Below are positions 23,550-38,320 of a DNA stretch of 41,550 nt, piece after piece. Below the pieces are notes generated by a model. That model made no database searches. It saw only the letters and a program-made list of their open reading frames with translations, and was not told the DNA's origin. Numbering within the stretch: the stretch's first letter is position 1; the number at the start of each line of letters is the position of its first letter. The DNA comes from a virus, in IMG/VR virus record IMGVR_UViG_3300045988_077180; one strand, written 5' to 3'. Made by a program: the position numbers and the translations under genes.

Positions 23550-25763
23550 TTGATAGATAAAAAAATACAGTTACAATTTAACAGCACAGTAAATAAAAGA
23601 GTTAAAGTTCGCAGCAATTGCGAGCTTTACTCACATGACAAAAATAACAATGAGTTTGAGTTAACAATAAACAATTACACACTTACAAACGAAGAAATAA
23701 CAGTACTATTCAAGTTTGTTAAGAGTGTTAAATATTGGGAAACTCACGGAAGAATTGAAGACAACAAGATTAAGTTTAAGTTTGATACTAGCTTAATCAC
23801 AGACAACGAAAGAGTAAACTGTTACATCATATTGAAAAACGAAGAGAAAGAAAGTGATGTGTACAGTTTTTCTTTTGATGTGAAGATGTCAGAGTACGAT
23901 TTAAAAGACAACTTACCAGTTAAAGAGCGATATTTTGCTAACGGTGTAGTAGTTGATAAGTTAGACGTGCTAACAAAAGAAGTGTTAGCAGAAGAGTTAG
24001 AAAAGGCTAAAAGTACGTTTGCTTTAAAATCAGACCTATCAGAGTTTGTAAGAACTAGTGATATTTCAGACGTAGTAAGAACTTCAACGCTTAACGATTA
24101 TCAATTAAAAAGCGAAATGCCAAATATTACAGAGATAGTTAATAACACAGTTGACAGCAAAGGCTTTTTAACAACACATCAAAGTTTAGTTGACTATGCG
24201 AAAAAGTCTGAACTACCTATCGACTATGTTTCTAATAGTAAGTTAGAAGAACTTAAAACGCAGTTAACTATAGATACTAGCAACTTTGCGACAAAACAAG
24301 AATTACAAGCTATTAGTGGTAGTCAACAAATAGTTGACACTAGCAATCTAGTAACAAAAGATGAATTAAATAGCAAGAATTATTTAACAGAACATCAATC
24401 GCTAGAAAATTATGTAACAAAAAATGAGTTAGATAACAAACACTATTTAACTACACATCAAGACATTAGCAACCTTGCGACTAAACAAGAGTTACAGGAA
24501 GTTAGCAACCGTCAAGTAACAGTTGACACTTCAAATTTAGCCACTAAAGAAGAACTTAGGAAAGCTTTTTTAGATGATGAAGAACATGAGAAATATGCTA
24601 AAAAATCAGAATTACCACAACCGTATAACGACGCTGATATTAAGAGTAGGTTAACAACTCTTGAAAATAGACCTGCTGGGAATGTTGATACGAGTGATTT
24701 TGTGACGAATAGAGTTTATAATGCTGATAAAGAAATGCTTAATAGAACGATAAGTAGGAAACTAGATAGAGATGAAACACCTTTTACATTAGCTGTTTAT
24801 GGCACTTCACCTTATGATTTTTTTCAAAAAACAAATCAAGGTACCCAAGAAAAAGCGTTCGGTAAAATCTACTTCAATAGGGATGAGCGTATAATAATTA
24901 GTGGTTTTGGTAAATACACTAACTTAGACACAGCGTTGTATACGTTGGCAAGTTCAATACCCGACAATTACACACCTGATTTTGAGTTTGGAGAAGGCGA
25001 TAACGTTAAACTTATCACTAACAAGAATATTAGTAATTACTTACCAAGTAACACAGGTAACACTAATAATACAGGTAATACAGGTAACACCGAGAAAATA
25101 ACTGCACTAGATAATCGATTAAAAGTACTAGAGGCTAACACTGGAAACACTGGAAACACAACTGAACTAGACAACCGATTAAAAGTTCTTGAAGCTAAAA
25201 ATTGGGAAATTCACGGACGAGGAATGCCAAACGGAGTTGTAACTGCACCTGTTGGAACTACGTATGTTGACGAAGCAGTAACAAACGGTGCTTTGAAGTG
25301 GATAAAGAAAAGTGGGACAGGCAACGTTGGTTGGGATGTTTTAATTGGTGATACCGGTTGGAAAGTACTTCCTTCTGTATCTAAACTAGGAAACTCATTC
25401 GTTAAAGTCAGACGTGTTAATAATGTAGTGTCTTATCAGTTCGGAGGACTTTCTTGGGGTTGGTTCGGAGTAGTCAGAAGAGGTGGTGCAGGATATCAAG
25501 TTCAACCGTCAGACCGTGAAAGAAACTGTTTCATTTTAGGTTTACAAGGTATTCCTCAAGGCTACCGTTCAGAATCATCTTTAATCGGTGGAATATACAA
25601 CGATAAAGGCGTACCTTATGGAACGTGGTATTTAGGTGGTGCAGGAGATAGCAACATGTTACGCTTCCAGTTTACTGACCCCGTGCCAACAGATAGAGAT
25701 ATTGGCGATATAAGAGTAAGTTCAATCTCGTATTTAACGAGTGACCCATGGCCGACTAACTAG
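23550..25763 (+). CDS. Large repeat-rich receptor-binding-like protein (737 aa)
   Basis: TTG start 8 nt after AAGGAGG. Repeated DTSNLATK(Q/E)EL units and NTG repeats. C-terminal GRGMPNGVVTAPVGTTYVDE...WIKKSGTGNVGW is a fibre-tip-like motif. Confidence 0.65.
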   Translation: MIDKKIQLQFNSTVNKRVKVRSNCELYSHDKNNNEFELTINNYTLTNEEITVLFKFVKSVKYWETHGRIEDNKIKFKFDTSLITDNERVNCYIILKNEEKESDVYSFSFDVKMSEYDLKDNLPVKERYFANGVVVDKLDVLTKEVLAEELEKAKSTFALKSDLSEFVRTSDISDVVRTSTLNDYQLKSEMPNITEIVNNTVDSKGFLTTHQSLVDYAKKSELPIDYVSNSKLEELKTQLTIDTSNFATKQELQAISGSQQIVDTSNLVTKDELNSKNYLTEHQSLENYVTKNELDNKHYLTTHQDISNLATKQELQEVSNRQVTVDTSNLATKEELRKAFLDDEEHEKYAKKSELPQPYNDADIKSRLTTLENRPAGNVDTSDFVTNRVYNADKEMLNRTISRKLDRDETPFTLAVYGTSPYDFFQKTNQGTQEKAFGKIYFNRDERIIISGFGKYTNLDTALYTLASSIPDNYTPDFEFGEGDNVKLITNKNISNYLPSNTGNTNNTGNTGNTEKITALDNRLKVLEANTGNTGNTTELDNRLKVLEAKNWEIHGRGMPNGVVTAPVGTTYVDEAVTNGALKWIKKSGTGNVGWDVLIGDTGWKVLPSVSKLGNSFVKVRRVNNVVSYQFGGLSWGWFGVVRRGGAGYQVQPSDRERNCFILGLQGIPQGYRSESSLIGGIYNDKGVPYGTWYLGGAGDSNMLRFQFTDPVPTDRDIGDIRVSSISYLTSDPWPTN
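25050..25196 (+). repeat. In-frame 9-nt (Asn-Thr-Gly) microsatellite-like runs alternating with a duplicated LDNRLKVLEA unit
   Basis: NTGNTNNTGNTGNT-EKITALDNRLKVLEA-NTGNTGNT-TELDNRLKVLEA, read directly from the sequence. Confidence 0.85.
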
Positions 25764-25782
25764 GAAAGGAGGTGAAATTATT

Positions 25783-26040
25783 ATGATAAATTGGAAAGTT
25801 AGATTTAAGAACAAACGCTTTGTTTTAGCGTTTATAGCAGCGTTATTACTACTTATTAAACAAGTTGCAATGTTGCTAGGATATAACTTAAATACTGAAT
25901 TGTTCAACACAAACATAAACGCGATTGTTGACACAGTATTTTTAATATTAGGTCTACTAGGAATAGTTAACGACCCTACAACAAAAGGTTTTTCAGATAG
26001 TGAACAAGCCTTAACATATGACAAGCCAAAACAAGACTAG
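25783..26040 (+). CDS. Holin, phi LC3 family-like
   Basis: MINWKVRFKNKRFVLAFIAALLLL...IVNDPTTKGFSDSEQALTY. AAAGGAGGTG RBS 8 nt upstream. Confidence 0.8.
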   Translation: MINWKVRFKNKRFVLAFIAALLLLIKQVAMLLGYNLNTELFNTNINAIVDTVFLILGLLGIVNDPTTKGFSDSEQALTYDKPKQD

Positions 26041-26059
26041 TTAATAGTCTTTTTATTTT
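26033..26059 (+). terminator. Terminator-like hairpin spanning the holin stop codon
   Basis: AAGACTA, loop GTTAA, TAGTCTT, then TTTATTTTA. Short 7-bp stem. Confidence 0.3.
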
Positions 26060-26083
26060 ACTTAATTTTAGGAGGAACAAACA

Positions 26084-26899
26084 ATGGCAGATATTTACAG
26101 TTCATACTTTCAACAAGGAATTTATTTCGCACCGCCAAAAAACTCAATAAAAGGAGTAGTAATTCACAACGATGCGTCAAGTTGGGGTGCAAAAGCGTGG
26201 GAGTCACAATTAACAGCAAAAGTGAACAACGGAACACTAGACACAGGCTTTGCAGCTTATTATGTAGATGAAAATGATACGCTTGTATTCCAACCAGTAA
26301 ACTATCAAGAGTGGCATACAGCGACTTATGAAGGAAACGCAAATTACATTGGTCTAGAATCTTGTAAATCAATGAGTGCATCTGATGAAGAGTTTATAGC
26401 TATTGAAGACGCAACACTTATGATAGCAGGCGAATTACTAGAATCTTATGGCTTGCCAGTAAATGAATATACTGTAAGATTACATCACGAGTTTAGTCCT
26501 ACAGCTTGCCCACACCGTTCAATGGAGTTACATGGTAATGGTGGTGCATATTATGGAGCAGGTACTCAAAATTGTAAAGCTTACTTTATTGATAGAATTA
26601 AAAAATTAAGAAGTGGTGAAATAGAAATTGGAGATACTACAAACGTTGCGGCTGTAGTTGAAAAATCTATACTAGATGAAGATGTAGAACTTCCAAAAAG
26701 CGATACACCATACTATGAAGCTACAGTATCTATTGACTACTACCTTGAAAGCCAACCATCACTAGATAGTGAAGATAAAGAGTTTGTAGCAGCTGGGACA
26801 AGAGTTCGAGTTTATGAGAAAAAAGACGGTTGGAGTAGAGTTAACTACAAAGATTCAGACCAATGGATTGAAGATAAATACTTAACAGAAGTAGAATAA
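26084..26899 (+). CDS. Endolysin: N-acetylmuramoyl-L-alanine amidase (Amidase_2/PGRP-like) with an SH3b-like C-terminal domain
   Basis: VVIHNDASS and LHHEFSPTACPHRS provide Zn-ligand motifs. C-terminal GTRVRVYEKKDGWSRVNY...WIEDKYL is SH3b-like. Confidence 0.8.
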   Translation: MADIYSSYFQQGIYFAPPKNSIKGVVIHNDASSWGAKAWESQLTAKVNNGTLDTGFAAYYVDENDTLVFQPVNYQEWHTATYEGNANYIGLESCKSMSASDEEFIAIEDATLMIAGELLESYGLPVNEYTVRLHHEFSPTACPHRSMELHGNGGAYYGAGTQNCKAYFIDRIKKLRSGEIEIGDTTNVAAVVEKSILDEDVELPKSDTPYYEATVSIDYYLESQPSLDSEDKEFVAAGTRVRVYEKKDGWSRVNYKDSDQWIEDKYLTEVE

Positions 26900-26941
26900 T
26901 GTGATACAATAAAAATAGAATTTTTTCATATTTATTCCCTA

Positions 26942-26972
26942 AAGCCTGCCTTAATTGGTGGGCTTATTTTTT
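26942..26972 (+). terminator. Rho-independent terminator ending the late/lysis operon
   Basis: AAGCCTGCC, loop TTAATT, GGTGGGCTT (two G-U pairs), then ATTTTTT. Confidence 0.65.
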
Positions 26973-26985
26973 ATGTTTGAAACCG

Positions 26986-27014
26986 TTGTATATCTAACGA
27001 AAATATGATATAAT
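26986..27014 (+). promoter_or_regulatory. Sigma-A type promoter TTGTAT-17-TATAAT with a TG extension
   Basis: TTGTAT at 26986-26991; TG at 27006-27007; TATAAT at 27009-27014. Confidence 0.6.
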
Positions 27015-27020
27015 AGTATT

Positions 27021-27111
27021 GTCTAGAACTAGATATTTTAAATAACAAATACCAACGATTCCACACCTATTTAAAGGCAGATACGTTCTGACGTGGAATT
27101 TCTTTTTTTTA
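27021..27111 (+). ncRNA. Candidate small RNA 1 (about 90 nt, promoter to terminator, no ORF)
   Basis: No ATG-initiated ORF. 5' hairpin TCTAG-AA-CTAGA. 3' stem ATTCCAC/GTGGAAT followed by TTCTTTTTTTT. Confidence 0.4.
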
Positions 27112-27150
27112 TTTCCTTGTTTTGAAGTCTTTAAATCTAATTAGAAAACA

Positions 27151-27159
27151 TGATATAAT
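27151..27159 (+). promoter_or_regulatory. Extended -10 promoter element TGATATAAT
   Basis: TG at 27151-27152; TATAAT at 27154-27159. The -35 is weak (TTAAAT). Confidence 0.45.
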
Positions 27160-27165
27160 ATATGT

Positions 27166-27243
27166 GTTAAGCTTAACAAACTTTTCATAATTAACTCCCT
27201 TATTTGTTATTACCTACCAATTAATTTTGGTAGGTCTTTTTTT
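27166..27243 (+). ncRNA. Candidate small RNA 2 (about 78 nt, promoter to terminator)
   Basis: Ends in a perfect 9-bp stem ACCTACCAA / TTGGTAGGT with loop TTAATT and a T7 run. Contains no meaningful ORF. Confidence 0.4.
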
Positions 27244-27300
27244 ATGTCTACTGTAATAGAAATTTTTTAAAATTTCCGTTAATAATTTTTAATTTATCTA

Positions 27301-27329
27301 TTGACATACACGCTCGAGCGTGATAAAAT
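27301..27329 (+). promoter_or_regulatory. Near-consensus promoter TTGACA-17-TAAAAT (TG-extended) with a 14-bp palindromic operator CACGCTCGAGCGTG in the spacer
   Basis: TTGACA at 27301-27306; palindrome at 27309-27322; TGATAAAAT at 27321-27329. The first cassette gene starts at 27364. Confidence 0.7.
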
Positions 27330-27363
27330 ATAATTGTAAAGATAAGAAGAGAGGTAAATAAAA

Positions 27364-27780
27364 ATGAGATTCGGAAGAAGAAAATACAACGCTTATAGAA
27401 AACGTAACTTTACAGCTACAGATAACCAACGTAGAGAATACGCTAAAAAAATGAATGAACTTTCAGAAGAGTTCTCAAAACTAGAAGGATGGAATTTATC
27501 AAGCATGAAAGATAGTGCTTATAAAGATTTTGGGAATTACTCAGTGAGATTATCTAATCACTCTGCAGATAATAATTACCACAACTTAGACGGAGGATAT
27601 TTACTAATAAATATTAAAGCTAGTAAATTAGATTTCGTAGATATAATCAACAACAAACTAGATGAGATCCTAGAAAAAATAAACACACTAGACTTAGAAA
27701 AATACAGATTCATCAACGTAACAAAAAGCAATATCAACTGTTACTACAAAGGATATAAAACAAAAAAGGATGTAATTTAA
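27364..27780 (+). CDS. Hypothetical protein, first gene of the SNF2/IbrA/IbrB cassette (basic N-terminus)
   Basis: 138 aa with a GAGG RBS. Only 1 nt separates it from the next ORF. No motif recognised. Confidence 0.65.
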   Translation: MRFGRRKYNAYRKRNFTATDNQRREYAKKMNELSEEFSKLEGWNLSSMKDSAYKDFGNYSVRLSNHSADNNYHNLDGGYLLINIKASKLDFVDIINNKLDEILEKINTLDLEKYRFINVTKSNINCYYKGYKTKKDVI

Positions 27781-27781
27781 A

Positions 27782-28147
27782 ATGTGGAAGACAATTCAAT
27801 TTAACAAACAAAACATAGAATACGACACAGGGGCGGCAGTTTTAATCAAACTGCCAAACCGTTCTAATTACAAGGGATATAAATTTTGGCATCCAGCCAA
27901 ATTAGTGAGAGAAATGAGAAAGGGGAACGGGTATTTTCTAACATTAAGCTATACAGATGATTTTGTGTTTAAAGTTTTTAAAACTGATAAGAGAGGTAGA
28001 AAGTTAGATAGCATTGAGTTTACTGGAGATGGTTTAGCTGGAGAGTTTAGACAACTTACTGAATCTGATGACACTAGCTTTTTAGAAATAACAGAACCTG
28101 TTAAGGTTGAAAGAAAAGTAGAAGTAATCAAGGAGTTAGAGAGATGA
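27782..28147 (+). CDS. Hypothetical protein, second gene of the cassette
   Basis: 121 aa. Its stop overlaps the SNF2 start (ATGA). No motif recognised. Confidence 0.65.
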   Translation: MWKTIQFNKQNIEYDTGAAVLIKLPNRSNYKGYKFWHPAKLVREMRKGNGYFLTLSYTDDFVFKVFKTDKRGRKLDSIEFTGDGLAGEFRQLTESDDTSFLEITEPVKVERKVEVIKELER

Positions 28148-29388
28148 TGTTAACCGAAACTCAACAATGGGCGTTTGATAAATTCAAAAGATTAAAAGTT
28201 GGTGCTTTATTTATGAAGCAAGGAACAGGAAAAACAAGAGTAGCGATAGAATTAATAAAAACTACTGATAGTGACTTAGTATTGTTTTTTACACCTTGCT
28301 CAACTAAAGATAATCTACAACAAGAGCTTATTAAATGGCAATTTAACAGGCAGTATATCATAACTGGATATGAAACCTTATCAAGCAGTGATAAAACGTA
28401 TATAGAGCTTTTAAATGCTATTGAAGGTAGGAAAGTATTTATTGTCGCAGATGAGAGTATATTTATTAAAAATGATGATACAAAACGCTATAAAAGATTA
28501 ATGAGTATCGCAAAAGAAAGCGAGTATAGATTAATATTAAATGGTACACCATTAACAAAAAACGAATGGGATATTTACAATCAGATGAATTTCTTGAGCT
28601 ATAAAATAATCAACATGAGTAAGCAAGAATTTCTAAATGTATTTTTTAAGAAGATATCATATAAGAAAGCTGGACAACGTCCTAGAGAATTTTACAAGCT
28701 GTCAGATGTCAACATAGAGTTTCTACATCACTTAATAGCACCATATATATATGAATGTGATTTTAACTTTGATAGAGAAGAGACAACACAATATGTAAGA
28801 ATAATCGCTAGTAATGATAATAAAGAAGATTATAACGTAAAAAAACAAACCTTACTTAACTCACTAGGAAAGGGAGAAAGTATAATTCAACAATTTCAAA
28901 ATCTAGCGTTGTCTTGTTTTAATGATGAAAAACGACATAAAGAAATAGCAGATTGTATTAAAAATCAAGGTCAAATAATAGTCTTTTGTACCTTTATAGA
29001 AGAAGCAGAAAGCATAGCTAATGAATTGAACTGTTATTTAATTACAGGAGCTACACCATTAAAAGAGCGTGTTGTTATCCTAGATAAGTTTAAAAATGAT
29101 AATAAGGCATTAGTGATGACATTAGGAACTGGAGCTTATGGGCTTAATCTACAATTTTGTAATAAGGTAGCTTTTGCGAGTATCACTTTTGATTATTCAA
29201 AAACAGAACAAGCCATAAGTAGGATTAAAAGAATAGGACAAGAGAATGATATTGAATATATATATTTTACATCAGACTTAGGAATATTTAATATGATCTT
29301 AGAAAATAATGAAAAGAAAAGAGATCTTAAAGAATTGTTGATAGATAAGATAGAACAAGGAGGAAACTATTTTGAAGAAGTATTGTGA
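28144..29388 (+). CDS. SNF2-family (DEAD-like) helicase/translocase core
   Basis: KQGTGKT (motif I), IVADESIF (motif II), LILNGTPLTKN (motif III) and SRIKRIGQ (motif VI). 414 aa. Confidence 0.85.
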   Translation: MMLTETQQWAFDKFKRLKVGALFMKQGTGKTRVAIELIKTTDSDLVLFFTPCSTKDNLQQELIKWQFNRQYIITGYETLSSSDKTYIELLNAIEGRKVFIVADESIFIKNDDTKRYKRLMSIAKESEYRLILNGTPLTKNEWDIYNQMNFLSYKIINMSKQEFLNVFFKKISYKKAGQRPREFYKLSDVNIEFLHHLIAPYIYECDFNFDREETTQYVRIIASNDNKEDYNVKKQTLLNSLGKGESIIQQFQNLALSCFNDEKRHKEIADCIKNQGQIIVFCTFIEEAESIANELNCYLITGATPLKERVVILDKFKNDNKALVMTLGTGAYGLNLQFCNKVAFASITFDYSKTEQAISRIKRIGQENDIEYIYFTSDLGIFNMILENNEKKRDLKELLIDKIEQGGNYFEEVL

Positions 29389-30670
29389 TTTAAATGTATA
29401 TAAAGCAGCACAAGAAAGAGTTAAATATATATTTGATGAGTTTGAAAATATATACGTTTCTTTCTCTGGTGGAAAAGATAGTGGAGTTTGTATGCATTTA
29501 ATGTGTGAAGAAGCACAACGAAGAAATAGAAAAATAGGTGTGCTATTTATCGATATAGAAGCACATTACCAAATGACTATTGACTACGCAAAAAGTATGA
29601 TAGATAAATATAAAGATGTAATTATACCTTACTGGGTGTGTTTACCTATGGAAACTGACAACAGCTTATCTTATGATGAGATGACGTGGAGCTGGTGGGA
29701 AACTGAAAAGAAAGATATATGGGTAAGAGAGATGCCAACAATGGATTATGTTATAAATGTAGACAATAACACTATTGATTATTACAAATATAAAATGACG
29801 TTTGAAGACTTTGTAGCAAAGTTTGGAAATTGGTATGGAAAGGGAGAAAAAACAGCTTGTATAATTGGTATCAGAACACAAGAGAGTTTAAATAGATGGC
29901 GTGCTTTAACTAATCAAAATAAAACTAGGTATAAAGACACAATGTACTCTACCAAAGTAGATAAGAATGTGTTTAATTTTTATCCTATATATGACTGGAC
30001 AACAGAAGATATATGGGTATATTATGGCAAAACTGGAAATGAATATAACAAATTTTACGACTTAATGTATAAAGCAGGTGTATCTATTCATAGCATGCGA
30101 ATAGATGAACCTTTTGGAGATACAGCAAAAGCAGGGTTAAATATGTTCAAAATTATAGAGCCAAAAACTTGGGTTAAAATTGTAGGTAGAGTTGCGGGTG
30201 CTAATTTTGGCAACATATACGCTAATTCATCTATTAATACAGCTAATTACAAATTGCCAAAAGGTCACACGTGGGAAAGTTTCACTTACTTTTTACTAGA
30301 TACTTTGCCAGAAACAGCAAGTAATCACTATAAAGAAAAGTTTGATAAGTTTATAAAATGGTGGACAGAAAAAGGCTCAGGAATGAGAAAAGAAGATATA
30401 GATATATTAAATATTAATTATAAAGACGCAGTATTTCAAACAGGAGAAATTAGTAATAGAGGTAATAAAGATAAAGAAATAGTTAGATTTAATCATGTAG
30501 TAGACACAATACCAGAACTAGACAGTAAGCAAGATGTTTTAACGTGGAAAAGAATGGCAATGTGTATTATTAAAAATGATTACTTCTGTAAAAGTTTATC
30601 TTTTGGAATAAGCAAGGAACAGCTTAAAAGAAGAAAGGAGACAATGAAGAAATATGAAACAATTTTGTAG
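29372..30670 (+). CDS. ibrA: IbrA-like PP-loop protein (PAPS-reductase fold plus a DUF3440-like C-terminal region)
   Basis: TTG start 7 nt after AAGGAGG. N-terminal VSFSGGKDSGV PP-loop. Length (432 aa) and overall pattern match IbrA-type proteins. Confidence 0.8.
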   Translation: MKKYCDLNVYKAAQERVKYIFDEFENIYVSFSGGKDSGVCMHLMCEEAQRRNRKIGVLFIDIEAHYQMTIDYAKSMIDKYKDVIIPYWVCLPMETDNSLSYDEMTWSWWETEKKDIWVREMPTMDYVINVDNNTIDYYKYKMTFEDFVAKFGNWYGKGEKTACIIGIRTQESLNRWRALTNQNKTRYKDTMYSTKVDKNVFNFYPIYDWTTEDIWVYYGKTGNEYNKFYDLMYKAGVSIHSMRIDEPFGDTAKAGLNMFKIIEPKTWVKIVGRVAGANFGNIYANSSINTANYKLPKGHTWESFTYFLLDTLPETASNHYKEKFDKFIKWWTEKGSGMRKEDIDILNINYKDAVFQTGEISNRGNKDKEIVRFNHVVDTIPELDSKQDVLTWKRMAMCIIKNDYFCKSLSFGISKEQLKRRKETMKKYETIL

Positions 30671-31175
30671 TCCAGTATATAATATTAAGGAAATACCTAT
30701 TGAAAAAATACAAGCTAACAGCTACAATCCAAACCATGTTGCACCACCAGAAATGAAGTTATTATATAAGTCTATATTAGAAGATGGTTACACAATGCCT
30801 ATTGTTTGTTACTATTTAGAAGATGAAGATAGATATGAGATAGTAGACGGATTTCATAGATATACTGTTATGAAAAAACATAAAGATATATTTGAAAGAG
30901 AAAATGGCTGCTTACCTGTATCTGTTATTGATAAACCTATTAGCGATAGAATGGCATCAACAATCAGACACAATAGAGCTAGAGGTAGTCATGATGTAGA
31001 ACTTATGACAAATATCGTTTCCGAGTTAGTAGAGAGTGGTTGTTCTGACACATGGATAATGAGACATATTGGAATGGATGCAGATGAACTGTTAAGGTTA
31101 AAACAATTAAGTGGACTAGCTTCATTATTTAAAGATAAATCTTTTTCAAAATCATGGGTTGTTGATTCTGATTAA
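30654..31175 (+). CDS. ibrB: IbrB-like ParB/Srx nuclease-like domain protein
   Basis: IQANSYNPNHV, YEIVDGFHRY and IRHNRARGSH motifs. Has a 17-nt overlap with the ibrA-like gene. Confidence 0.8.
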   Translation: MKQFCSPVYNIKEIPIEKIQANSYNPNHVAPPEMKLLYKSILEDGYTMPIVCYYLEDEDRYEIVDGFHRYTVMKKHKDIFERENGCLPVSVIDKPISDRMASTIRHNRARGSHDVELMTNIVSELVESGCSDTWIMRHIGMDADELLRLKQLSGLASLFKDKSFSKSWVVDSD

Positions 31176-31187
31176 TTCTGATATAAT
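31159..31187 (+). promoter_or_regulatory. Promoter TTGTTG-17-TATAAT with a TG extension
   Basis: TTGTTG at 31159-31164; TGATATAAT at 31179-31187. Lies directly after the ibrB-like stop. Confidence 0.5.
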
Positions 31188-31213
31188 TATAAAAAATATT
31201 TAGGAGCGATAAC

Positions 31214-31393
31214 ATGGGTAAATTATCAGAAGCAAAATTAAGAGGTAATAAAAAGTGGGATGACAACAATAGAGAAAGAAAGAGATATATTAACAAGAGA
31301 TCTACAGCTAGAAATTTCATAAAAACTATGGAACGTGAGGATATTCCTGAGTTCGAAGAATTATTAAAAGAAAGAAAAGCTAGAAATGATTAG
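31214..31393 (+). CDS. Small highly basic protein (59 aa), hypothetical DNA/RNA-binding
   Basis: AGGAG RBS 7 nt upstream. KLRGNKKWDDNNRERKRYINKRSTARNFIK. Has its own promoter and terminator. Confidence 0.55.
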   Translation: MGKLSEAKLRGNKKWDDNNRERKRYINKRSTARNFIKTMEREDIPEFEELLKERKARND

Positions 31394-31398
31394 TCATT

Positions 31399-31431
31399 GG
31401 AGGTAGAAATAAAACTACCTCTTTTTTATTT
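31399..31431 (+). terminator. Rho-independent terminator
   Basis: GAGGTAG, an 8-nt loop, CTACCTC, then TTTTTTATTTT. Confidence 0.7.
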
Positions 31432-31441
31432 TGTAAATTTA

Positions 31442-31450
31442 TGTTAAAAT
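31442..31450 (+). promoter_or_regulatory. Extended -10 element TGTTAAAAT
   Basis: TG at 31442-31443; TAAAAT at 31445-31450. Lies upstream of the ORF at 31469. Confidence 0.35.
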
Positions 31451-31468
31451 AAGCCAGAGGTGGAAGAG

Positions 31469-31822
31469 ATGAAAAGATATTATTTAAACAGTTTTAACAA
31501 TTTAAGAATGGAAAATTTTCTATTAAGAAATAACGATATACAAAAAGATAATCAAGGGATCTACACAGAAGATGTTGAAGATTTTAAAGATTTTCAAGAA
31601 CAATTTGATAGCTTAGAATATTTTAAGACTATTCAAAAATTCATAGATGTTTTTGACTTAGAGTATATGATTTCTAAAGACAACTTTACTTACTATGTAA
31701 GAGTAATAGAAGATGATGCAAACAATGTATTTTCTTTAATATATGAAAGTCAAGATGGCACAGAAGATGTGAATATATCTGATGTAGTAGAAATAAGAAG
31801 AGGAGATATTCTCTGTGATTAA
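31469..31822 (+). CDS. Strongly acidic hypothetical protein (117 aa), last gene before attP
   Basis: GAGGTGGA RBS. About 26 Asp/Glu against about 12 Lys/Arg by my count. Confidence 0.6.
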   Translation: MKRYYLNSFNNLRMENFLLRNNDIQKDNQGIYTEDVEDFKDFQEQFDSLEYFKTIQKFIDVFDLEYMISKDNFTYYVRVIEDDANNVFSLIYESQDGTEDVNISDVVEIRRGDILCD

Positions 31823-32092
31823 TTTTAAAATTTAAGTGAGCAAAAAATGGACTTAAGTTAAATTTATATGATGTTATATGAGAATATAAATAACAAAAAA
31901 TACTATTAAATCAATCATTTGGCATTACATAACATTATATAAAATACTAGTAATATAATGAAAGGGTTTATGGAATAACCTCTATAAATATTGATGTAAT
32001 AGTCTTTCTATTTAAATAAATATACTTAGTGAGCAGTTAGTGAGCAATAATATTTTTTACATTGAAATTCATAGAAATATATACAAAAAATT
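31823..32092. other. Probable attP region with arm-type direct repeats (T)AGTGAGCA
   Basis: AT-rich non-coding DNA next to the int 3' end. AGTGAGCAA at 31835-31843. Tandem TTAGTGAGCA at 32026-32035 and 32037-32046. Confidence 0.45.
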
Positions 32093-32119
32093 AAGGCAGT
32101 TTAAATAACTGCCTTTTTT
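32093..32119. terminator. Bidirectional terminator between the moron island and integrase
   Basis: AAGGCAGTT, loop TAAAT, AACTGCCTT, flanked by A-runs and T-runs on both strands. Confidence 0.7.
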
Positions 32120-33188
32120 AAAATTCTATATCTCTAAATACATCTAATTCTTTTTGTTTTGCCTTTTTAGTTTTGTGAATATACACAGCTCTTGTAATCT
32201 CTGTTCCTTTGTGTCCTAGACGAGCGGATATTAATTCTAGTGGGATTTCTGCATCCATACATAAACTAGCGTGTGTATGACGTGTCTTATGAAATGTGAA
32301 TTTAACAGAGTGAATATTATCACGAGTCCATTTGCTAACTGCACTGTAAGAGTTATAATCTCCGTTAGCTTTAGGGAAGAGTATTCCGTTATTAGTATAT
32401 TTGCTACTCATAGCAGCTTTGATTTTATTCATCTCAACTCTATTCTTAAGGATTTCTTGGCATTTTTTATTTAATGATATTACACGCTTAGAGTCATAAG
32501 TTTTTGGAGAAGATATATTTTTATAGTGGTCTATATTCTTATCAACATTAAGTGTTCCATTATCTAATATATCATCTTCTGTAAGTGCTAGTGTTTCTCC
32601 AATCCTTAGTCCGGAATTAATCATAAAGTTTATCATATCATGATAATACTGATTGTTCTCAACTTCTTTTAATATCACTTCTATTTCTTCTTTTTCGAAG
32701 TATTTTCCATCATAGTTAACTTTATGTTCCTTTAAATCAAGTTTATCTAACCACATTATATTTTCTATGTAGTCCAGTTTATACATCATTCTAAGAACTC
32801 GTTTAAAGAACTTTAAATAAATATTATAGCTATTATTTGTAGTAGCTATTTTTTTGACTAGAGTATCTAAATAAAGAGAGTTAACATTTAATAACGGCGT
32901 ATCGAAATTAGTTCTCTTTGTCTTACTAATTCTACTTTCATAGAGTTTATATGTACTAACTTTCACTTCATCTTTAACTCTCTCTAAATACATTTCTAAA
33001 GCTGTAAAAAATGTAATTCGGAGATCTACAAATGTTTCTTCTTTAAGTTTCTTTTTTCTTAATATTTCAGTAGCTAATCGTTGGTTTTTATTTTCTAGCG
33101 TAATGCTAATTGATTTCATTTTACCCCTAACATCTTTAACTCGGGTACGATACATATATTTTCCGTTAGGTTTCTTAACTACCCACAT
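32118..33188 (-). CDS. int: Tyrosine integrase
   Basis: GLRIGETLAL (Arg), FHKTRHTHASL (H-x-x-R) and LGHKGTEITRAVYIH (His...Tyr). Likely start is MWVVKKPNGKY at 33188. Confidence 0.9.
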   Translation of the reverse strand: MWVVKKPNGKYMYRTRVKDVRGKMKSISITLENKNQRLATEILRKKKLKEETFVDLRITFFTALEMYLERVKDEVKVSTYKLYESRISKTKRTNFDTPLLNVNSLYLDTLVKKIATTNNSYNIYLKFFKRVLRMMYKLDYIENIMWLDKLDLKEHKVNYDGKYFEKEEIEVILKEVENNQYYHDMINFMINSGLRIGETLALTEDDILDNGTLNVDKNIDHYKNISSPKTYDSKRVISLNKKCQEILKNRVEMNKIKAAMSSKYTNNGILFPKANGDYNSYSAVSKWTRDNIHSVKFTFHKTRHTHASLCMDAEIPLELISARLGHKGTEITRAVYIHKTKKAKQKELDVFRDIEF

Positions 33189-33332
33189 ACTAACACATCC
33201 TTTCTTTATTAATAGTAAGATGTGTGATATAATTAAATTAATGAGCGAGGTTCGCTCCACATCTTAAGTAATTTTGAGAGTAATATTGTTATGTGACGAT
33301 ATAATAATACTCAAAATGGACTTACAGTTGAC

Positions 33333-33368
33333 AAACTCACAACTCTTGGCGGGGGCGTGAGTTTTTTT
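33333..33368 (+). terminator. Orphan + strand terminator-like hairpin between two - strand genes
   Basis: AAACTCAC, a 16-nt G-rich loop, GTGAGTTT, then TTTT. Confidence 0.35.
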
Positions 33369-33396
33369 AATTTGATTTAATTTAACAACATGAAAT

Positions 33397-33418
33397 TCAC
33401 GCGAAAATCACGCGAAAA
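33397..33418. repeat. Tandem 11-bp repeat TCACGCGAAAA x2
   Basis: Read directly. Lies in the 310-bp gap between the lipoprotein gene and int. Confidence 0.8.
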
Positions 33419-33498
33419 AATATACATGAAAAGCTTTTATAACAAGCTTAAGTTGATTTTTAAATATAACATCAACATGAAAATAACACGCTTTTTAT

Positions 33499-33963
33499 TT
33501 ACTCAAAATAGTTAGGACGGGTTACATTTTTATTGACTTCTAATGCTTTGTTCGTTTTGTCGTGAATATAAAGCCCGCTTTCTGGGTTGTAGTTGAAATA
33601 AGCTGCTTTTAAGATTGTACCGTTTAATTTCATATTATAAATTAACAAATCGCCATTATCAACCATAATATTAAAACCGTTATCTAAATAAACTACTAAC
33701 ACTTTGAATTTACCTCTCTCCCTTTGTTTAGCGACAAAATCATGGAATTGTCGTTGAGTTATGTAATTAAAATCGACAACAGTCATTTCCATTTTATAAA
33801 CCCCGTCAGTTTCGACTGCTATTTTTCCAGGATCTAATATGCGAGAAATTCTCTCAGCTTGTTTTTGTTCAGTCGTCATCTCTTTTGGTGCTTCAGCTTT
33901 TGTTGAACTGCACCCTGTTAATACTAATGATGTTGTTAATAATACTTTTAATAATTTTTTCAT
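33499..33963 (-). CDS. Prophage lipoprotein (candidate superinfection-exclusion factor)
   Basis: Signal peptide with a lipobox: MKKLLKVLLTTSLVLTGCSS. AGGAGG RBS. Lies between the repressor and integrase. Confidence 0.75.
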   Translation of the reverse strand: MKKLLKVLLTTSLVLTGCSSTKAEAPKEMTTEQKQAERISRILDPGKIAVETDGVYKMEMTVVDFNYITQRQFHDFVAKQRERGKFKVLVVYLDNGFNIMVDNGDLLIYNMKLNGTILKAAYFNYNPESGLYIHDKTNKALEVNKNVTRPNYFE

Positions 33964-33982
33964 AATTGTTTCCTCCTATTAA

Positions 33983-34360
33983 TTAGAATTTACGTCTTAA
34001 TTCAATAACTTTTCCTACTATAGTAACCGGTAACCTTTCTATCTGTTCGTTTGTGTAAAATGTAGGGGTGTAATTGCTATTATTAGGTATTAACATTATT
34101 CCATTTTCAGAACGCTCATATCTTTTACATGTTGCATCATCTCCATTAACCATAGCAATAACTGTATCTCCATTATCTGCTGAAGATTGTTTCCTAACAA
34201 TTACAACATCTCCATTTTCTAGAGTGGGATACATTGAGTCTCCTTTAATTTTTAATCCAAAGAACTCTCCTTGATTTTCCCAAGATTGAGGTAATTCTTC
34301 ATAATCTAATATATCCTCAACAGCTGCTATTGGTATTCCAGCTGGAACAGTTCCTAGCAC
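33983..34360 (-). CDS. Peptidase S24 (LexA/CI C-terminal) domain ORF
   Basis: VPAGIP cleavage-site-like motif, GDSMYPTL (Ser) and TCKRY (Lys). The frame is continuous with the upstream HTH ORF except for one TAG. Confidence 0.7.
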   Translation of the reverse strand: MLGTVPAGIPIAAVEDILDYEELPQSWENQGEFFGLKIKGDSMYPTLENGDVVIVRKQSSADNGDTVIAMVNGDDATCKRYERSENGIMLIPNNSNYTPTFYTNEQIERLPVTIVGKVIELRRKF

Positions 34361-34399
34361 AGGTATCTTTATTCCTTTAGAATTATGAGGTTCATCTTC

Positions 34400-34591
34400 C
34401 TACCCCATAAGATAACTTTCTGAAACTTTTAATACTCTTGATAATTCCGTTATTTTAGACAATGGTAAATCTACTAAACCTTTCTCATATTTACTAATAG
34501 AACTTTCATGAACCCCAATCCTTTTCGCTAATTCTCTTTTTGTTAATTTTAAGAGTTCCCTAGATTCTCTTATTCTATCAGATGTTTTCAC
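34400..34591 (-). CDS. XRE-family HTH domain ORF (CI-like repressor N-terminal domain)
   Basis: LKLTKRELAKRIGVHESSISKYEKG. GTG start 6 nt after GGAGTG. Divergent from the cro-like gene. Confidence 0.8.
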   Translation of the reverse strand: MKTSDRIRESRELLKLTKRELAKRIGVHESSISKYEKGLVDLPLSKITELSRVLKVSESYLMG

Positions 34592-34628
34592 TGTTTACAC
34601 TCCAATCATTATTTATTTTTGTACAATC

Positions 34629-34749
34629 ATTATACCATCTATTTGAATTAAAATAAAGTATTTTTTAACGAAAATAAAAAAAACTTGAATTTAAGTATTG
34701 ACAATATGAATAATAAATGATAGTATATGAGTATGAATTAAATTCAAGT
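34629..34749. promoter_or_regulatory. Genetic switch: divergent promoters with CTTGAATT-type operators
   Basis: Rightward TTGACA (34698-34703)-17-TAGTAT (34721-34726). Leftward TGGTATAAT (complement of 34629-34637). Operators at 34643-34655, 34684-34697 and 34734-34749. Confidence 0.6.
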
Positions 34750-34772
34750 TAAATTTAACGAAGGAGGAAAAC

Positions 34773-34976
34773 ATGAAATTAGATATACTCAAAAATAAAA
34801 TTTTTGAAAACAGAAAAACATATAAAGACTGTGCAGAAATGCTCAATATTAGCGTTACAGCCTTTTCTAATAAGATGAACGGTCATACAGAGTTCAAAGT
34901 AACAGAAGTGATAAATTTGGCAGAATACTTATCATTATCATCAGAAGATTGTCAAACTATTTTTTTTAACAAATAA
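34773..34976 (+). CDS. Cro-like XRE HTH regulator
   Basis: 67 aa. KTYKDCAEMLNISVTAFSNKMNG. AAGGAGG RBS. Divergent from the repressor. Confidence 0.75.
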   Translation: MKLDILKNKIFENRKTYKDCAEMLNISVTAFSNKMNGHTEFKVTEVINLAEYLSLSSEDCQTIFFNK

Positions 34977-34991
34977 CTTGAATTAAATTCA
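34976..34991. promoter_or_regulatory. Fourth operator copy ACTTGAATTAAATTCA just after the cro-like gene
   Basis: Matches the reverse complement of 34734-34749 at 15 of 16 positions. Confidence 0.5.
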
Positions 34992-35017
34992 CATTCATTT
35001 TTAATAGGAGGTAGCGA

Positions 35018-35272
35018 ATGTTAGAAACAATTTGGTTAAATCCAGAACGAGCTTCTAAAATCTTCCCTAACATTGGGACTACAAAATTTAATAAGTATAA
35101 AGATGAATTTATAAAACTATGGGAACAAGATTATTACCCTAGAGAAACTTATTTAAAAGAATGTAATGGGATAGAAATTAAAGCTTTTGTTCACTATCTA
35201 GCTTGGAGAGATTATTTCCAGGATAGCAATTTAATTAACAAAGTAGAATTATTTAAAGGAGTATGGCAATGA
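35018..35272 (+). CDS. Hypothetical protein, possibly a Tn916-Xis-like excisionase
   Basis: LNPERASKIFPNIGTTKFNKY loosely resembles the Xis_Tn916 HTH. The call is weak. Confidence 0.3.
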   Translation: MLETIWLNPERASKIFPNIGTTKFNKYKDEFIKLWEQDYYPRETYLKECNGIEIKAFVHYLAWRDYFQDSNLINKVELFKGVWQ

Positions 35273-35448
35273 AACTAAAAATTAAAAAAGATAAATTACA
35301 CATTATATATTGGACAATCGCTGTAGTAAGTGTATGTTTCCTTACTTTAACAAATATCGATTGGAGACAGATTGCAGGATTTTCTACTGGATTTGGTTTT
35401 CTAATTCAAGGGATCTTTGATAAAGATTTCAGTAAAAAATATTTTTAG
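35263..35448 (+). CDS. Small membrane protein, hypothetical
   Basis: 61 aa with two hydrophobic segments. Confidence 0.45.
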   Translation: MAMKLKIKKDKLHIIYWTIAVVSVCFLTLTNIDWRQIAGFSTGFGFLIQGIFDKDFSKKYF

Positions 35449-35457
35449 GAGGAATGT

Positions 35458-35937
35458 ATGAATAAGTTTAAAAAATTATTCTATAGAAGAGGATTTGAAT
35501 TAATAGATGATATGAATGGCGAGTTACCTATAAAATCTACAATTCATAGTGCGGGAGTTGATTTCATAGCTAGTCAAGAAATTGTGATCCCTGCATTTAG
35601 ATTTAAAGGTGAAGCAACTTTAGTACCTACTGGATTAAAAGCATTTATGCCAAAAAATGAATGTCTATTAATATTTGCTAGAAGTAGCTTACCAGTTAAC
35701 CGTGGTCTAATAATGAGTAACGGTGTAGGAGTTGTAGATTCAGATTATTATAACAACTCTAAAAACGAAGGACATATATTATTAGAGTTTAACAATTTAA
35801 CAAACAAACATTTAACAATTAAAAAAGGTGAAAGAATTGGACAAGGTATTTTCTATAAAGTTCCTAAAGTAAGTTATGGAGTTAGATTAAAAGGAGATAA
35901 GCGTGGTGGAGGATTTGGAAGTACAAATAAAGAATAG
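35458..35937 (+). CDS. dut: dUTP diphosphatase (trimeric dUTPase)
   Basis: SAGVDF, ARSS, VGVVDSDYY, GERIGQ and RGGGFGSTN motifs. Confidence 0.9.
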   Translation: MNKFKKLFYRRGFELIDDMNGELPIKSTIHSAGVDFIASQEIVIPAFRFKGEATLVPTGLKAFMPKNECLLIFARSSLPVNRGLIMSNGVGVVDSDYYNNSKNEGHILLEFNNLTNKHLTIKKGERIGQGIFYKVPKVSYGVRLKGDKRGGGFGSTNKE

Positions 35938-36121
35938 TTTTAGTGAAAAACAAATGGAAATGCTAAAGCATCTAAATGATTACGGTGTTAAGGTAGAACC
36001 TTATGTAAAAGAAAAGTTTCCAACAGGATTTGAAAGTTATGAATTATTTGAAGTACTAGCAGAATATTTCGCTCACACAGCTAAACTATTAAAACAAAAG
36101 TATTTAGAAGAGGAGTGTTAG
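35903..36121 (+). CDS. Hypothetical protein
   Basis: GTG start 6 nt after AAGGAG. 72 aa. Confidence 0.5.
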   Translation: MVEDLEVQIKNSFSEKQMEMLKHLNDYGVKVEPYVKEKFPTGFESYELFEVLAEYFAHTAKLLKQKYLEEEC

Positions 36122-36124
36122 CTA

Positions 36125-36565
36125 ATGAATATTCCTAATTTCAGAGCATACGTTGATAAAAAAATGTATAAAGTTATTGGTTGGTATGGTGATTATATCA
36201 CATTAGGAAGAAAGTATGAAAGTAGATATATTCAATCAATCAATGTAAAGAAAAATGATGTGATTATCATGTATGGAAGTGATTTAAAAGACAAAAAAGG
36301 AAATGAAATATTTAGCGGAGATATCGTTAAAAATACTGATAAAGATATTGGAATAGTGAGATATAAAGACGGATCTTTTGAAGTTGATTTCAAGCAATAT
36401 ATCCCAGCCCAATTAGGATTGATAAATGATGATTTAGAAATAATTGGAGATATTCATAGAAATAAAAAATTACTAGATAAGATTATTAATAACAATAAAA
36501 AAGTTATTTGTTTAAATAGCGTAGAAAAAAGGATTAATAAAAAAAGGAAAAGAACGTCTAAATAG
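36125..36565 (+). CDS. YopX-like protein
   Basis: DKKGNEIFSGDIV...GIVRYKDGSFEV...LEIIGDIHRN pattern. Confidence 0.6.
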   Translation: MNIPNFRAYVDKKMYKVIGWYGDYITLGRKYESRYIQSINVKKNDVIIMYGSDLKDKKGNEIFSGDIVKNTDKDIGIVRYKDGSFEVDFKQYIPAQLGLINDDLEIIGDIHRNKKLLDKIINNNKKVICLNSVEKRINKKRKRTSK

Positions 36566-36630
36566 ACGTTCAGCGATTACCTATAATATATCATAATTAA
36601 TCCAAAAATGCAAGATTTCAAAAGAAGAAG

Positions 36631-37737: not shown

Positions 37738-37765
37738 TGATAATTTCTAACAGGAGGTTATCAAT

Positions 37766-38320
37766 TTGGAGTTTGTAGAACCACTTAGGACACAAGAAGA
37801 ACTAGATGCAATGAATTATTATTTTAAAAGCAGGAGCGAGCGTGATTACTTACTTTACTACATGGGAATAAATGTAGCTTTTAGAATTAGTGATTTATTA
37901 GGATTAAAGGTTGGTGATGTAAGAAACAGGGATAAGATAAGAAGGCGTGAAATGAAGACTGGAAAGTTAAGAGAGATGGTTGTATTACCTAAATTAAAGC
38001 GTGTATTAGATGAGTATTGTATGGATAAAGAAGATGAAGAATACTTGTTTAAATCAACACGATATAAGAACTCTAACAGACCAATTACAAGAACACAAGC
38101 ATACAGGATACTTAAGACTGGTGCTAAAGAGTGTGGGATAAAGAATATAGGTACACATAGTTTCAGAAAGACATTTGGTTATCATTTTTACAAAGAAAGT
38201 AAGGATGTAGTAACACTCATGAAGTTATTCAATCATCATGATCCTAGTATTACATTAAGATATATAGGGATAGAACGTGATGAGATGAGTAAAGCTGTTA
38301 AAAAATGGGGTGGATTATAG
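37766..38320 (+). CDS. Second, minimal tyrosine recombinase (catalytic domain only, 184 aa)
   Basis: TTG start 8 nt after AGGAGG. AFRISDLLGLKVGDV (Arg), GTHSFRKTFGYHFY (H-x-x-R) and HHDPSITLRYIG (His...Tyr). Confidence 0.75.
   Translation: MEFVEPLRTQEELDAMNYYFKSRSERDYLLYYMGINVAFRISDLLGLKVGDVRNRDKIRRREMKTGKLREMVVLPKLKRVLDEYCMDKEDEEYLFKSTRYKNSNRPITRTQAYRILKTGAKECGIKNIGTHSFRKTFGYHFYKESKDVVTLMKLFNHHDPSITLRYIGIERDEMSKAVKKWGGL

Follow-up and report, generated by a model that had tools for sequence, protein, structure and literature searches.

The virus genome IMGVR_UViG_3300045988_077180 of IMG/VR, which we analysed over its full 41,550 nucleotides (nt; the window), carries between its lysin gene and its attP/int region an operon predicted to encode an anti-CRISPR (Acr) protein of the AcrIIA5 family (ORF1), an uncharacterised small protein (ORF2), a minimal SNF2-family ATPase (ORF3), an IbrA-like PP-loop enzyme (ORF4), an IbrB-like protein of the ParB/Srx fold (ORF5) and a small basic protein (ORF6). 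Genes 2-5 are identified by sequence comparison as a conserved and horizontally mobile cassette. We suggest that the operon serves anti-defence and regulates itself, and that its cassette acts on DNA, with modification as the most likely activity; we give this reading about an even chance of being correct. An action on DNA is proposed because a ParB-fold protein, an SNF2 translocase and an adenylating PP-loop enzyme are obligatorily linked in the cassette, and a part in counter-defence because the cassette is co-transcribed with an Acr gene and is present in virulent phages. Domain chemistry, obligate pairing and Acr co-transcription are thus the basis on which a DNA-modifying or counter-defence role may be assigned to it.

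Organization and promoter of the operon

The features of the operon and its borders are the following.

26942-26965, plus strand: terminator hairpin after the lysin gene (9-bp stem and T-run), upstream boundary of the region
27212-27235, plus strand: second terminator hairpin, directly 5' of the operon promoter (terminator scan and reading of the sequence)
27301-27329, plus strand: sigma-70-type promoter TTGACA-17-TAAAAT with a TG-extended -10 box (11 of 12 positions matching)
27309-27322: operator, perfect 14-nt palindrome CACGC-TCGA-GCGTG (CACGCTCGAGCGTG) in the -35/-10 spacer
27364-27780, plus strand: ORF1, 138 amino acids (aa), AcrIIA5-family anti-CRISPR, predicted Cas9 inhibitor
27782-28147, plus strand: ORF2, 121 aa, uncharacterised small protein, putative accessory subunit of the SNF2-IbrA-IbrB cassette
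28144-29388, plus strand: ORF3, 414 aa, minimal SNF2-family ATPase
29372-30670, plus strand: ORF4, 432 aa, IbrA-like PP-loop enzyme (PAPS_reduct and DUF3440 domains)
30654-31175, plus strand: ORF5, 173 aa, IbrB-like ParB/Srx-fold protein
31214-31393, plus strand: ORF6, 59 aa, basic protein of phrog_2277, candidate autorepressor resembling anti-CRISPR-associated (Aca) proteins
31399-31430, plus strand: intrinsic terminator closing the six-gene unit (8-bp stem at 31399-31422, then T-run)

An earlier note on this DNA, made from the letters of the sequence, had described a five-gene operon behind a near-consensus promoter with a palindromic operator. The ORF list and translations agreed with its five ORFs, their coordinates and their junctions (a 1-nt gap, an ATGA overlap and then two 17-nt overlaps), and all the motifs it quoted were found in the translations (KQGTGKT, IVADESIF, LILNGTPLTKN, SRIKRIGQ, SFSGGKDS, NSYNPNHV, VDGFHRY and IRHNRARG). 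The number of genes had to be corrected: the transcription unit most likely spans 27330-31430 and holds six genes, because a sixth ORF with its own AGGAG ribosome-binding site, and then a terminator, follow ORF5. The IbrA gene starts with TTG, 7 nt downstream of AAGGAGG. The position given in the note, after the lysis-operon terminator and before int, was borne out, with the holin and lysin genes and the two terminators upstream and the integrase gene downstream; the operon thus lies between lysin and attP/int, outside the early replication module.

The promoter and its palindrome were as the note had read them, and the promoter is the top-scoring site in the 10.5 kb from 25500 to 36000, where promoter-like sites as a class are not enriched (62 observed against 59 expected). 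The palindrome CACGCTCGAGCGTG occurs once in the window, and the chance expectation is 0.19 sites even when up to 3 mismatches are allowed. It belongs to an operator family with the consensus ACACGC-N4-GCGTGT. Homologous promoters occupy the same position in phages of Gemella, Streptococcus equinus and Streptococcus thermophilus, the operator half-sites being kept in the relatives L007/L008 and L087-L090, in phage Pika (L004, at 2282) and in phage CHPC1148 (L091, at 1948), and a search of viral contigs for the pattern added about 35 operators in promoter context. We considered the palindrome as a CI/Cro operator and rejected this, since it occurs singly and the lysogeny-switch region has its own repeats of the TGAATTAAATTCA type. 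The promoter had also been called a lysogen-type promoter in a moron slot at the prophage end. The promoter with its operator and the position hold, but the label is too narrow, as the block is also found in the virulent phage D4276. There the operon block follows the lysin gene, as it does in the Moineauvirus CHPC1148, for which the stretch that was read has no annotated integrase.

The anti-CRISPR gene and the exchangeable first position

The two proteins in front of the helicase had been listed as unknown in the earlier note, and for one of them this no longer applies. ORF1 matches AcrIIA5 of the Protein Data Bank (PDB; 6LKF_A) over its full length (E=9e-57, residues 1-138 on 1-140), is 65-69% identical to the annotated AcrIIA5 of D4276, Sfi21, TP-778L and phiKSM96, and matches phrog_14794 at 8.8e-66. 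By these comparisons it is an AcrIIA5-family anti-CRISPR. In the alignment to 6LKF it retains H66, N70 and H73 (segment RLSNHSADNNYH), which have been mutated in AcrIIA5 in work that also showed inhibition of diverse Cas9 proteins by homologues down to 48% identity (PMC6910239). The identity of 65-69% suggests that this copy too would inhibit Cas9, an activity shown experimentally for the family. For ORF2 no PDB match was found.

AcrIIA5 and the cassette are separable. The former occurs without SNF2-IbrA-IbrB in Sfi21, TP-778L, O1205 and phiKSM96, and the closest relatives of the operon, prophages in Gemella haemolysans (L007) and "Streptococcus sp. UMB1385" (L008), which are 79-80% identical at the nucleotide level over ORF2-ORF6, keep the promoter and the exact palindrome and have two unrelated ORFs of 108 and 173 aa in place of AcrIIA5. 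The first position behind the promoter is therefore exchangeable between phages, and its replacement in these two prophages is the cassette-swapping typical of acr loci. Behind the same operator-promoter we found as first-position ORFs L008 4568-4894 (108 aa) and 4901-5422 (173 aa), L004 2337-2849 (170 aa), L124 14086-14817 (243 aa) and L135 9936-10352 (138 aa). None of these five had a Pfam match, and a search of PDB sequences that covered the 108-aa and 173-aa proteins gave no match for either. We regard all five as candidate new anti-CRISPR or anti-defence proteins.

A separate observation concerns the same two prophages. At 9020-12900 of L007 and 9020-11531 of L008, the end of the prophage that carries the acr operon borders directly on a 5'-truncated cas9, whose frame starts at the RuvC-III motif (YAKDAYLNVVVGN) and runs through the PI domain (Pfam Cas9_PI, 1.4e-47); cas1, cas2, csn2 and a CRISPR array come next. 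Judged from the right junction, the prophage appears to be integrated inside the cas9 gene of a type II-A locus. The nearest precedent that we found is prophage integration into CRISPR repeats (bioRxiv 10.1101/2020.10.09.333658). The int gene and attP of the window differ from those of these two prophages.

Recurrence of the cassette in other genomes

The order AcrIIA5-ORF2-SNF2-IbrA-IbrB is identical in the S. thermophilus phage D4276, the discovery source of AcrIIA5, and the positions of translated searches (tblastn) give the same five-gene order in CHPC877 and CHPC1062. A profile scan of species-representative genomes for IbrA gave at least 559 loci, and neighbourhoods were counted for the best 80. 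IbrB lies directly downstream of IbrA in 78 of these 80, and SNF2 directly upstream in about 62. The 80 loci span Bacillota, Alphaproteobacteria, Bacteroidota, Verrucomicrobiota, Spirochaetota and one Heimdallarchaeum. The recurrence of the gene order in other genomes, one of the checks proposed with the earlier note, was thus found both as the full order in D4276 and as SNF2-IbrA-IbrB across phyla. Within the same loci IbrB is the best conserved of the three (63-73% identity where IbrA has 43-47% and SNF2 22-33%). Clustering all ORFs around the 80 IbrA loci against each other brought out no conserved partner beyond SNF2 and IbrB.

Sequence context identifies SNF2-IbrA-IbrB as a conserved, mobile cassette that is not confined to phages, because several loci outside the Firmicutes are flanked by housekeeping genes. 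The flanks at L037, L043, L020, L080 and L083 are LpxK/KdtA, ClpB/PurL, HlyD/OmpA, ClpB/BioD-like/MCP and SusD/FGE-sulfatase, and the few flanking ORFs scanned at these five loci included no phage genes. Some of the five consist of the IbrA-IbrB pair alone.

The Flavobacterium columnare phages form a further group, with 90 records that have both SNF2 and IbrA matches. In Flavobacterium phage FCV-1 (L095, 4001-6865), SNF2 is followed by an ORF of 185 aa and then one of 378 aa; by size alone this suggests an IbrB-like gene before an IbrA-like one, unlike the Firmicutes order.

Proteins of the cassette

Profile searches support the three assignments that the earlier note had made by motif, with the SNF2-rel_dom, Helicase_C and ParB_N matches above the Pfam cutoffs, and all three window proteins retain their catalytic motifs (I, II, III and VI in SNF2, the PP-loop in IbrA and the ParB box in IbrB). 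The SNF2 protein matches SNF2-rel_dom (PF00176, 1.2e-10), Helicase_C (PF00271, 3.2e-14) and phrog_62 (6e-73); its motifs I, II, III and VI read GTGKT, DES, NGTP and QAISRIKRIGQ, and its best PDB match is the Sulfolobus SNF2/Rad54 core 1Z63 (E=9e-13).

IbrA matches DUF3440 over the full length of the profile (PF11922, 2.9e-53), PAPS_reduct (PF01507, 5.3e-18) and phrog_2302 (4e-106), and it is 75% identical to the copy in CHPC1230 and 88-89% to those in Gemella prophages. In an alignment of 81 sequences the PP-loop SGGKDS is conserved in at least 90%, four cysteines (C90, C163, C398 and C406) in 84-100%, and further Arg, Glu and Ser residues are conserved as well. A metal or Fe-S site is possible, because these four cysteines are so widely kept; a preliminary view from six phage sequences, that IbrA has no conserved Cys, was withdrawn on this larger alignment. 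IbrB matches ParB_N (PF02195, 1.4e-7) and phrog_2159 (8e-84), and Pfam detected no helix-turn-helix (HTH) domain after its ParB_N part. Its family comprises at least 8000 clusters at 90% identity, one of them named by NCBI as "IbrB-like domain-containing protein". The arrangement is that of an IbrA/IbrB pair: PAPS_reduct precedes DUF3440, and the ParB_N gene is directly 3' with a 17-nt overlap.

ORF2 tracks with the helicase and not with the Acr in the genomes compared, because it adjoins SNF2 in S. equinus phages and in CHPC1148, which carry it upstream of SNF2 and have no AcrIIA5. It is directly 5' of SNF2 in D4276, CHPC1148, the S. equinus phages and Gemella as well as in loci of Melioribacteraceae, Spirochaetales and Pseudomonadota. 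Among the 80 genome loci it was next to SNF2 in five, belonging to Bacillota, Ignavibacteriota, Spirochaetota and Pseudomonadota, and a remote homologue occupies the same position in Lactobacillus phage CR28 (hhalign, 93.7%). The family is unannotated and forms 574 clusters in a 50%-identity library. An AlphaFold2 (AF2) model of ORF2, with a mean confidence score (pLDDT) of 79, has an all-beta domain and one helix. When this fold was searched, the PDB yielded no match (best E=0.2, TM 0.17) and BFVD only unnamed viral proteins and one DUF3627 protein. In a Rosetta-stone search for fusions, the ten longer family members carried no Pfam domain.

ORF6 and the operator

Aca proteins shut acr promoters down after an initial burst. 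ORF6 is probably an Aca-like autorepressor that binds the operator, because operator and ORF6 co-vary in the genomes compared. Homologues of ORF6 with at least 56% identity occur only with ACACGC-N4-GCGTGT promoters, and one was found at every scanned operator contig that reached far enough; the two occur together even in operons that have no cassette (L124, L135 and L136). The half-sites are found in the promoter spacer in three lineages, namely Gemella phages, the S. equinus phage Pika and the S. thermophilus phage CHPC1148, and in exactly these three the last gene of the operon is a homologue of ORF6, at least 63% identical. D4276 has no ORF6 and a different palindrome, TGTTGAC-ATAC-GTCAACA, and in the ORF6 position it has a small gene with a borderline Cro/C1 HTH match. 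A diverged ORF6-like gene closes the operon of CHPC642, which is led by AcrIIA6 (E=3.5e-112 to 6EYY) and has a different spacer palindrome. Another lies in the lysin-integrase region of Listeria phage LP-101, beside a Cro/C1-type, AcrIIA1-like HTH gene and with yet another palindrome.

IbrB and ORF2 were also considered as the operator-binding protein and rejected, as D4276 keeps close homologues of both (83% and 48% identical to those of the window, respectively) with a different operator. Pfam and NCBIfam gave no family for ORF6, and neither they nor its AF2 model (pLDDT 70), which consists of one long and one short helix, indicated an HTH or ribbon-helix-helix; at this confidence the model speaks neither for nor against DNA binding.

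Possible function of the cassette

In the course of events that we propose, the strong promoter with its spacer palindrome (ACACGC-N4-GCGTG) would drive all six genes, and the product of the first, AcrIIA5, would block Cas9. IbrB would bind DNA or a nucleotide, the SNF2 motor would translocate on duplex DNA or open it, and IbrA would use ATP to adenylate a DNA or nucleotide substrate. The outcome of this step could be a covalent change of the DNA or some other activity at the DNA level, and such a change would let the phage DNA escape host nucleases. ORF6 would bind the palindrome and shut the promoter down after the initial burst.

Several points weigh against this reading. We found neither a paper nor an experiment in the literature searched that connects SNF2-IbrA-IbrB with DNA modification or counter-defence. 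Presence in an acr operon is in itself weak evidence of function, since such slots also carry unrelated cargo. The general domain scans of the window took in about 30 of its ORFs, and no gene for a nucleophile donor (desulfurase, amidotransferase or tRNA-guanine transglycosylase, TGT) was among them. The presence of the cassette amid housekeeping genes in many non-Firmicutes is not what a purely anti-defence role would predict. In mycobacteriophage Gaia the IbrA-IbrB pair sits in the replication region, between primase/polymerase and a RepA-like helicase and also next to an exonuclease/helicase gene. The alphaproteobacterial SNF2 copies (L027-L076, mostly from gut metagenome-assembled genomes) often have a degenerate Walker A (GxGKT) and motif VI Arg, and position 31 of SNF2 is Ile or Val in 35 of 61 sequences, in a low-identity alignment of a phylogenetically skewed sample; these cellular copies, by their motifs, suggest inactive or atypical motors. 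Finally, the AF2 model of ORF6 has no recognisable DNA-binding fold.

The earlier note had offered three roles for the genes, namely self-protection, defence of the lysogen and counter-defence, and we favour counter-defence over lysogen defence for the Acr co-transcription and the virulent phages. If the cassette protected the lysogen against superinfection, SNF2 would track incoming DNA, IbrB would serve as a ParB-type nuclease or NTPase effector, and IbrA would mark or sense DNA. The integrated form fits such a role, since in L087 the operon lies at the prophage end and adjoins host genes with rhodanese, SpoU-methylase and CorA domains, and in S. thermophilus phages this region has been described as a lysogenic-conversion module (PMC3952083). 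Bacterial chromosomes carry the cassette outside prophages as well, and in PADLOC the SNF2 protein matches the SNF2 components of DISARM, Zorya, BREX and Dpd. However, these matches are to generic helicase domains that make up small parts of much longer models, and no self/non-self partner such as a methylase or restriction nuclease was found among the scanned ORFs. Moreover, virulent D4276 carries the same block and has no lysogen to protect, and the cassette is co-transcribed with an anti-CRISPR gene. We think that defence of the lysogen is improbable.

It is also conceivable that IbrA, IbrB and SNF2 form a gene-expression switch, which would agree with the name first given to the pair, co-activators of prophage gene expression. 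Like ParB-like anti-silencers and RapA-like SNF2 proteins, they would then remodel RNA polymerase or nucleoid proteins on the phage DNA and not protect the DNA chemically. IbrAB reportedly enhance the expression of prophage eib genes in E. coli, which is said to be their sole reported phenotype. ParB-fold proteins include transcription regulators such as DndB (PMC10853773), and NCBIfam gave weak matches of SNF2 to RapA and to a pilus-expression-regulating Snf2 helicase. These matches, however, are far below the cutoffs (50 against 1100 bits), IbrB has no HTH after ParB_N, and the operator does not co-vary with IbrB. The near-invariant enzyme motifs of IbrA (SGGKDS, Arg/Glu/Ser and the four Cys) favour catalysis over plain DNA binding, and we therefore give a switch of expression a low probability.

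The genes might instead belong to ordinary phage DNA metabolism, as a helicase and nucleotide enzymes of replication, recombination or repair, or to sulfur assimilation as an auxiliary metabolic gene (AMG), the Acr being linked by position only. PHROGs places SNF2 and ParB under DNA, RNA and nucleotide metabolism and IbrA as "phosphoadenosine phosphosulfate reductase, AMG", and the location of the pair in Gaia also fits such a role; none of the early genes scanned in the window was recognisable as a dedicated replicative helicase. Against a metabolic role, the genes lie outside the early replication module (35458-40667) and under the acr promoter, and many related phages, such as Sfi21, TP-778L and CHPC642, do without the cassette, so it is not core replication machinery. 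Sulfur assimilation fits poorly, as the models of CysH and APS reductases score 24-44 bits against cutoffs of 154-254, the CysH Cys motif is absent by eye, and a strict coupling to a ParB-fold protein (78 of 80 loci) is not expected for sulfate assimilation. A role in metabolism is thus unlikely in our view.

Returning to the anti-defence reading, a more specific form of it is that ORF2-SNF2-IbrA-IbrB is a new phage counter-defence machine. A ParB-fold loader and an SNF2 motor would deliver an ATP-pyrophosphatase to duplex DNA, where an undescribed modification would be installed or DNA-targeting immunity otherwise disarmed, and expression of the machine from acr operons would be controlled by a new family of non-HTH, Aca-like repressors (ORF6, phrog_2277). 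We hold this form to be possible but on the doubtful side. If it is true, a very large orphan family would gain a function, with thousands of IbrB-like clusters in bacteria, archaea and phages. In annotations of phages and prophages, IbrA/IbrB-type pairs rank with the most frequent "auxiliary" genes that lack an explanation, and they are usually dismissed as sulfur-metabolism genes or partition proteins. Our analysis ties the pair into a fixed cassette with an SNF2 ATPase, which is carried within validated anti-CRISPR operons in phages of Streptococcus and Gemella, under a co-varying pair of operator and small protein. The hypothesis is testable in culturable systems, the S. thermophilus phages D4276 (PMC6060171) and CHPC1148 (listed in GenBank). 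ORF6-like genes may serve as a new marker for anti-defence operons in Firmicutes phages, and the analysis has two by-products, a candidate Aca family without an HTH and several candidates for new Acrs from the swappable slot.

Other features of the genome

The remaining features to which the text refers are the following.

25741-26040: holin
26084-26899: amidase lysin (Amidase_2 and SH3 matches)
31470-31822, plus strand: ORF7, about 117-120 aa, between the operon terminator and attP/int; adjacent to the unit, with membership of it not shown
32118-33260, minus strand: integrase
35458-40667: early replication module (SSB, dUTPase, YopX, HNH)

The window is a complete, circularly permuted genome of a temperate siphovirus of about 41.5 kb, whose first 55 nt (1-55) are repeated at 41496-41550. 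It encodes terminase, portal, holin, amidase lysin, integrase, an S24-type repressor, dUTPase, YopX, single-stranded DNA-binding protein (SSB) and HNH proteins. The host is Gemella, and homologues of ORF2 and ORF6 that are 88-98% identical come from Gemella sanguinis, G. haemolysans and uncultured Gemella. ORF7 has no family match in Pfam or PHROGs and is kept alongside the operon in the close relatives L087-L090, L112, L125, L133 and L150.

The CI-like repressor gene (33983-34600, minus strand) is split by an in-frame stop at about 34400-34402 into a part that by eye looks like an HTH (LTKRELAKRIGVHESSISKYEKG) and a Peptidase_S24 part at 33983-34360 (Pfam, 3.7e-30). Possible explanations are a pseudogene, an error of sequencing or a repressor made in two pieces. 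A second, short ORF of the Phage_integrase family (37766-38320, 184 aa) lies inside the early gene region.

The intergenic region of the lysin operon has a terminator-like hairpin with a conserved inner stem-loop at 27040-27112. Its 14-nt motif CAGATACGTTCTGA (27078-27091) recurs at the same place in D4276, CHPC1230 and CHPC1148, and compensatory changes are seen at 8 of 14 pairs (RNAalifold), without an Rfam match. An extended -10 box at 26999-27022 precedes this hairpin, and a small RNA may be made from it. A second extended -10 box (GAAAAyATGATATAATA) lies in 27144-27240, with the terminator at 27212-27235 about 50 nt later, and may give a second short transcript; the sole Rfam match there is VrrA, below threshold with 30.6 bits against a gathering score of 50. 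An Rfam scan of 26800-32300 at permissive E-values gave nothing near the gathering score.

Comparison with known systems

The earlier note had compared the locus to Dnd, Ssp, BREX type 4 and Dpd. The likeness lies in the PAPS-reductase-fold PP-loop ATP pyrophosphatase (DndC, SspD, BrxP), in ParB-fold partners (DndB, DpdB) and in SNF2-type helicases (DpdE, BrxHI), but the window locus is phage-borne and Acr-linked, and the analogies fail as membership, with partial PADLOC and NCBIfam matches below threshold and no partner genes among the scanned ORFs. PADLOC gave no system-level match, and none at all for ORF1, ORF2 and IbrB. No cysteine desulfurase, DndD/DndE, PglZ/BrxC/BrxL, TGT, DrmA/B of DISARM or ZorA/B of Zorya was found in the same set of ORFs. 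Membership of Dnd/Ssp was rejected, as TIGR03183 gave 35 bits against a cutoff of 290 and partner domains were absent from the scanned ORFs; the DndC models of PADLOC and NCBIfam match residues 160-260 of IbrA only, with 31-37 bits. BREX, DISARM, Dpd and Zorya were likewise rejected, since the matches cover helicase lobes only, about 60-320 residues of models 750-1300 long, without partners, and the NCBIfam equivalogs for system helicases score 25-55 bits against cutoffs of 500-1500. A CysH-type PAPS/APS reductase was rejected on NF002537 (43.9 against 154), TIGR02057 (38.5 against 254) and TIGR02055 (24 against 235); the PDB match of IbrA to CysH is weak (70 residues, E=0.003), and by eye IbrA lacks the catalytic Cys motif that CysH has at its C-terminus.

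With E. coli IbrA/IbrB the locus shares a PAPS_reduct and DUF3440 protein followed by a ParB_N protein. DUF3440 is, to our knowledge, specific to IbrA, and we know of no biochemical activity of E. coli IbrA or IbrB. In line with the earlier note, which stated that no mechanism is known for the pair, the literature searched held no functional study of phage IbrA, IbrB or SNF2. The E. coli phage PhiR5_2 has a pair annotated as IbrA/IbrB, with 37% identity to the window over IbrA; unlike in the window, this pair has no SNF2 or ORF2 partner and no Acr.

A regulatory parallel is with Aca-controlled acr operons, for example the AcrIIA1-regulated promoter of Listeria. They too begin with variable acr cargo and end with a small conserved gene, behind a strong promoter whose palindromic operator lies within or beside the -35/-10 spacer and co-varies with the last gene; in Listeria phage LP-101 this layout is found next to an AcrIIA1-like HTH gene. 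In contrast, ORF6 of the window has no Pfam or NCBIfam family and no detected HTH, and the window operon carries an extra 3.4 kb of enzyme genes, which is unusual.

The acr locus of D4276 (GenBank MF161328, D4276_028-032) is the nearest counterpart. It has the same gene order, with 48% identity in ORF2, 65% in SNF2, 41% in the IbrA-like and 83% in the IbrB-like protein, and it too comes next after the lysis genes and is preceded by a consensus promoter with a palindrome. It differs in that D4276 has been called virulent (PMC6060171), in an extra conserved gene (D4276_027) between promoter and acr, in the sequence of the palindrome, in the small HTH-like gene of the last position and in an IbrA of another sub-lineage than that of the window. 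The locus described here thus adds a Gemella member to a type of operon that had been sequenced before in D4276 (2017), and its gene families already have names individually.

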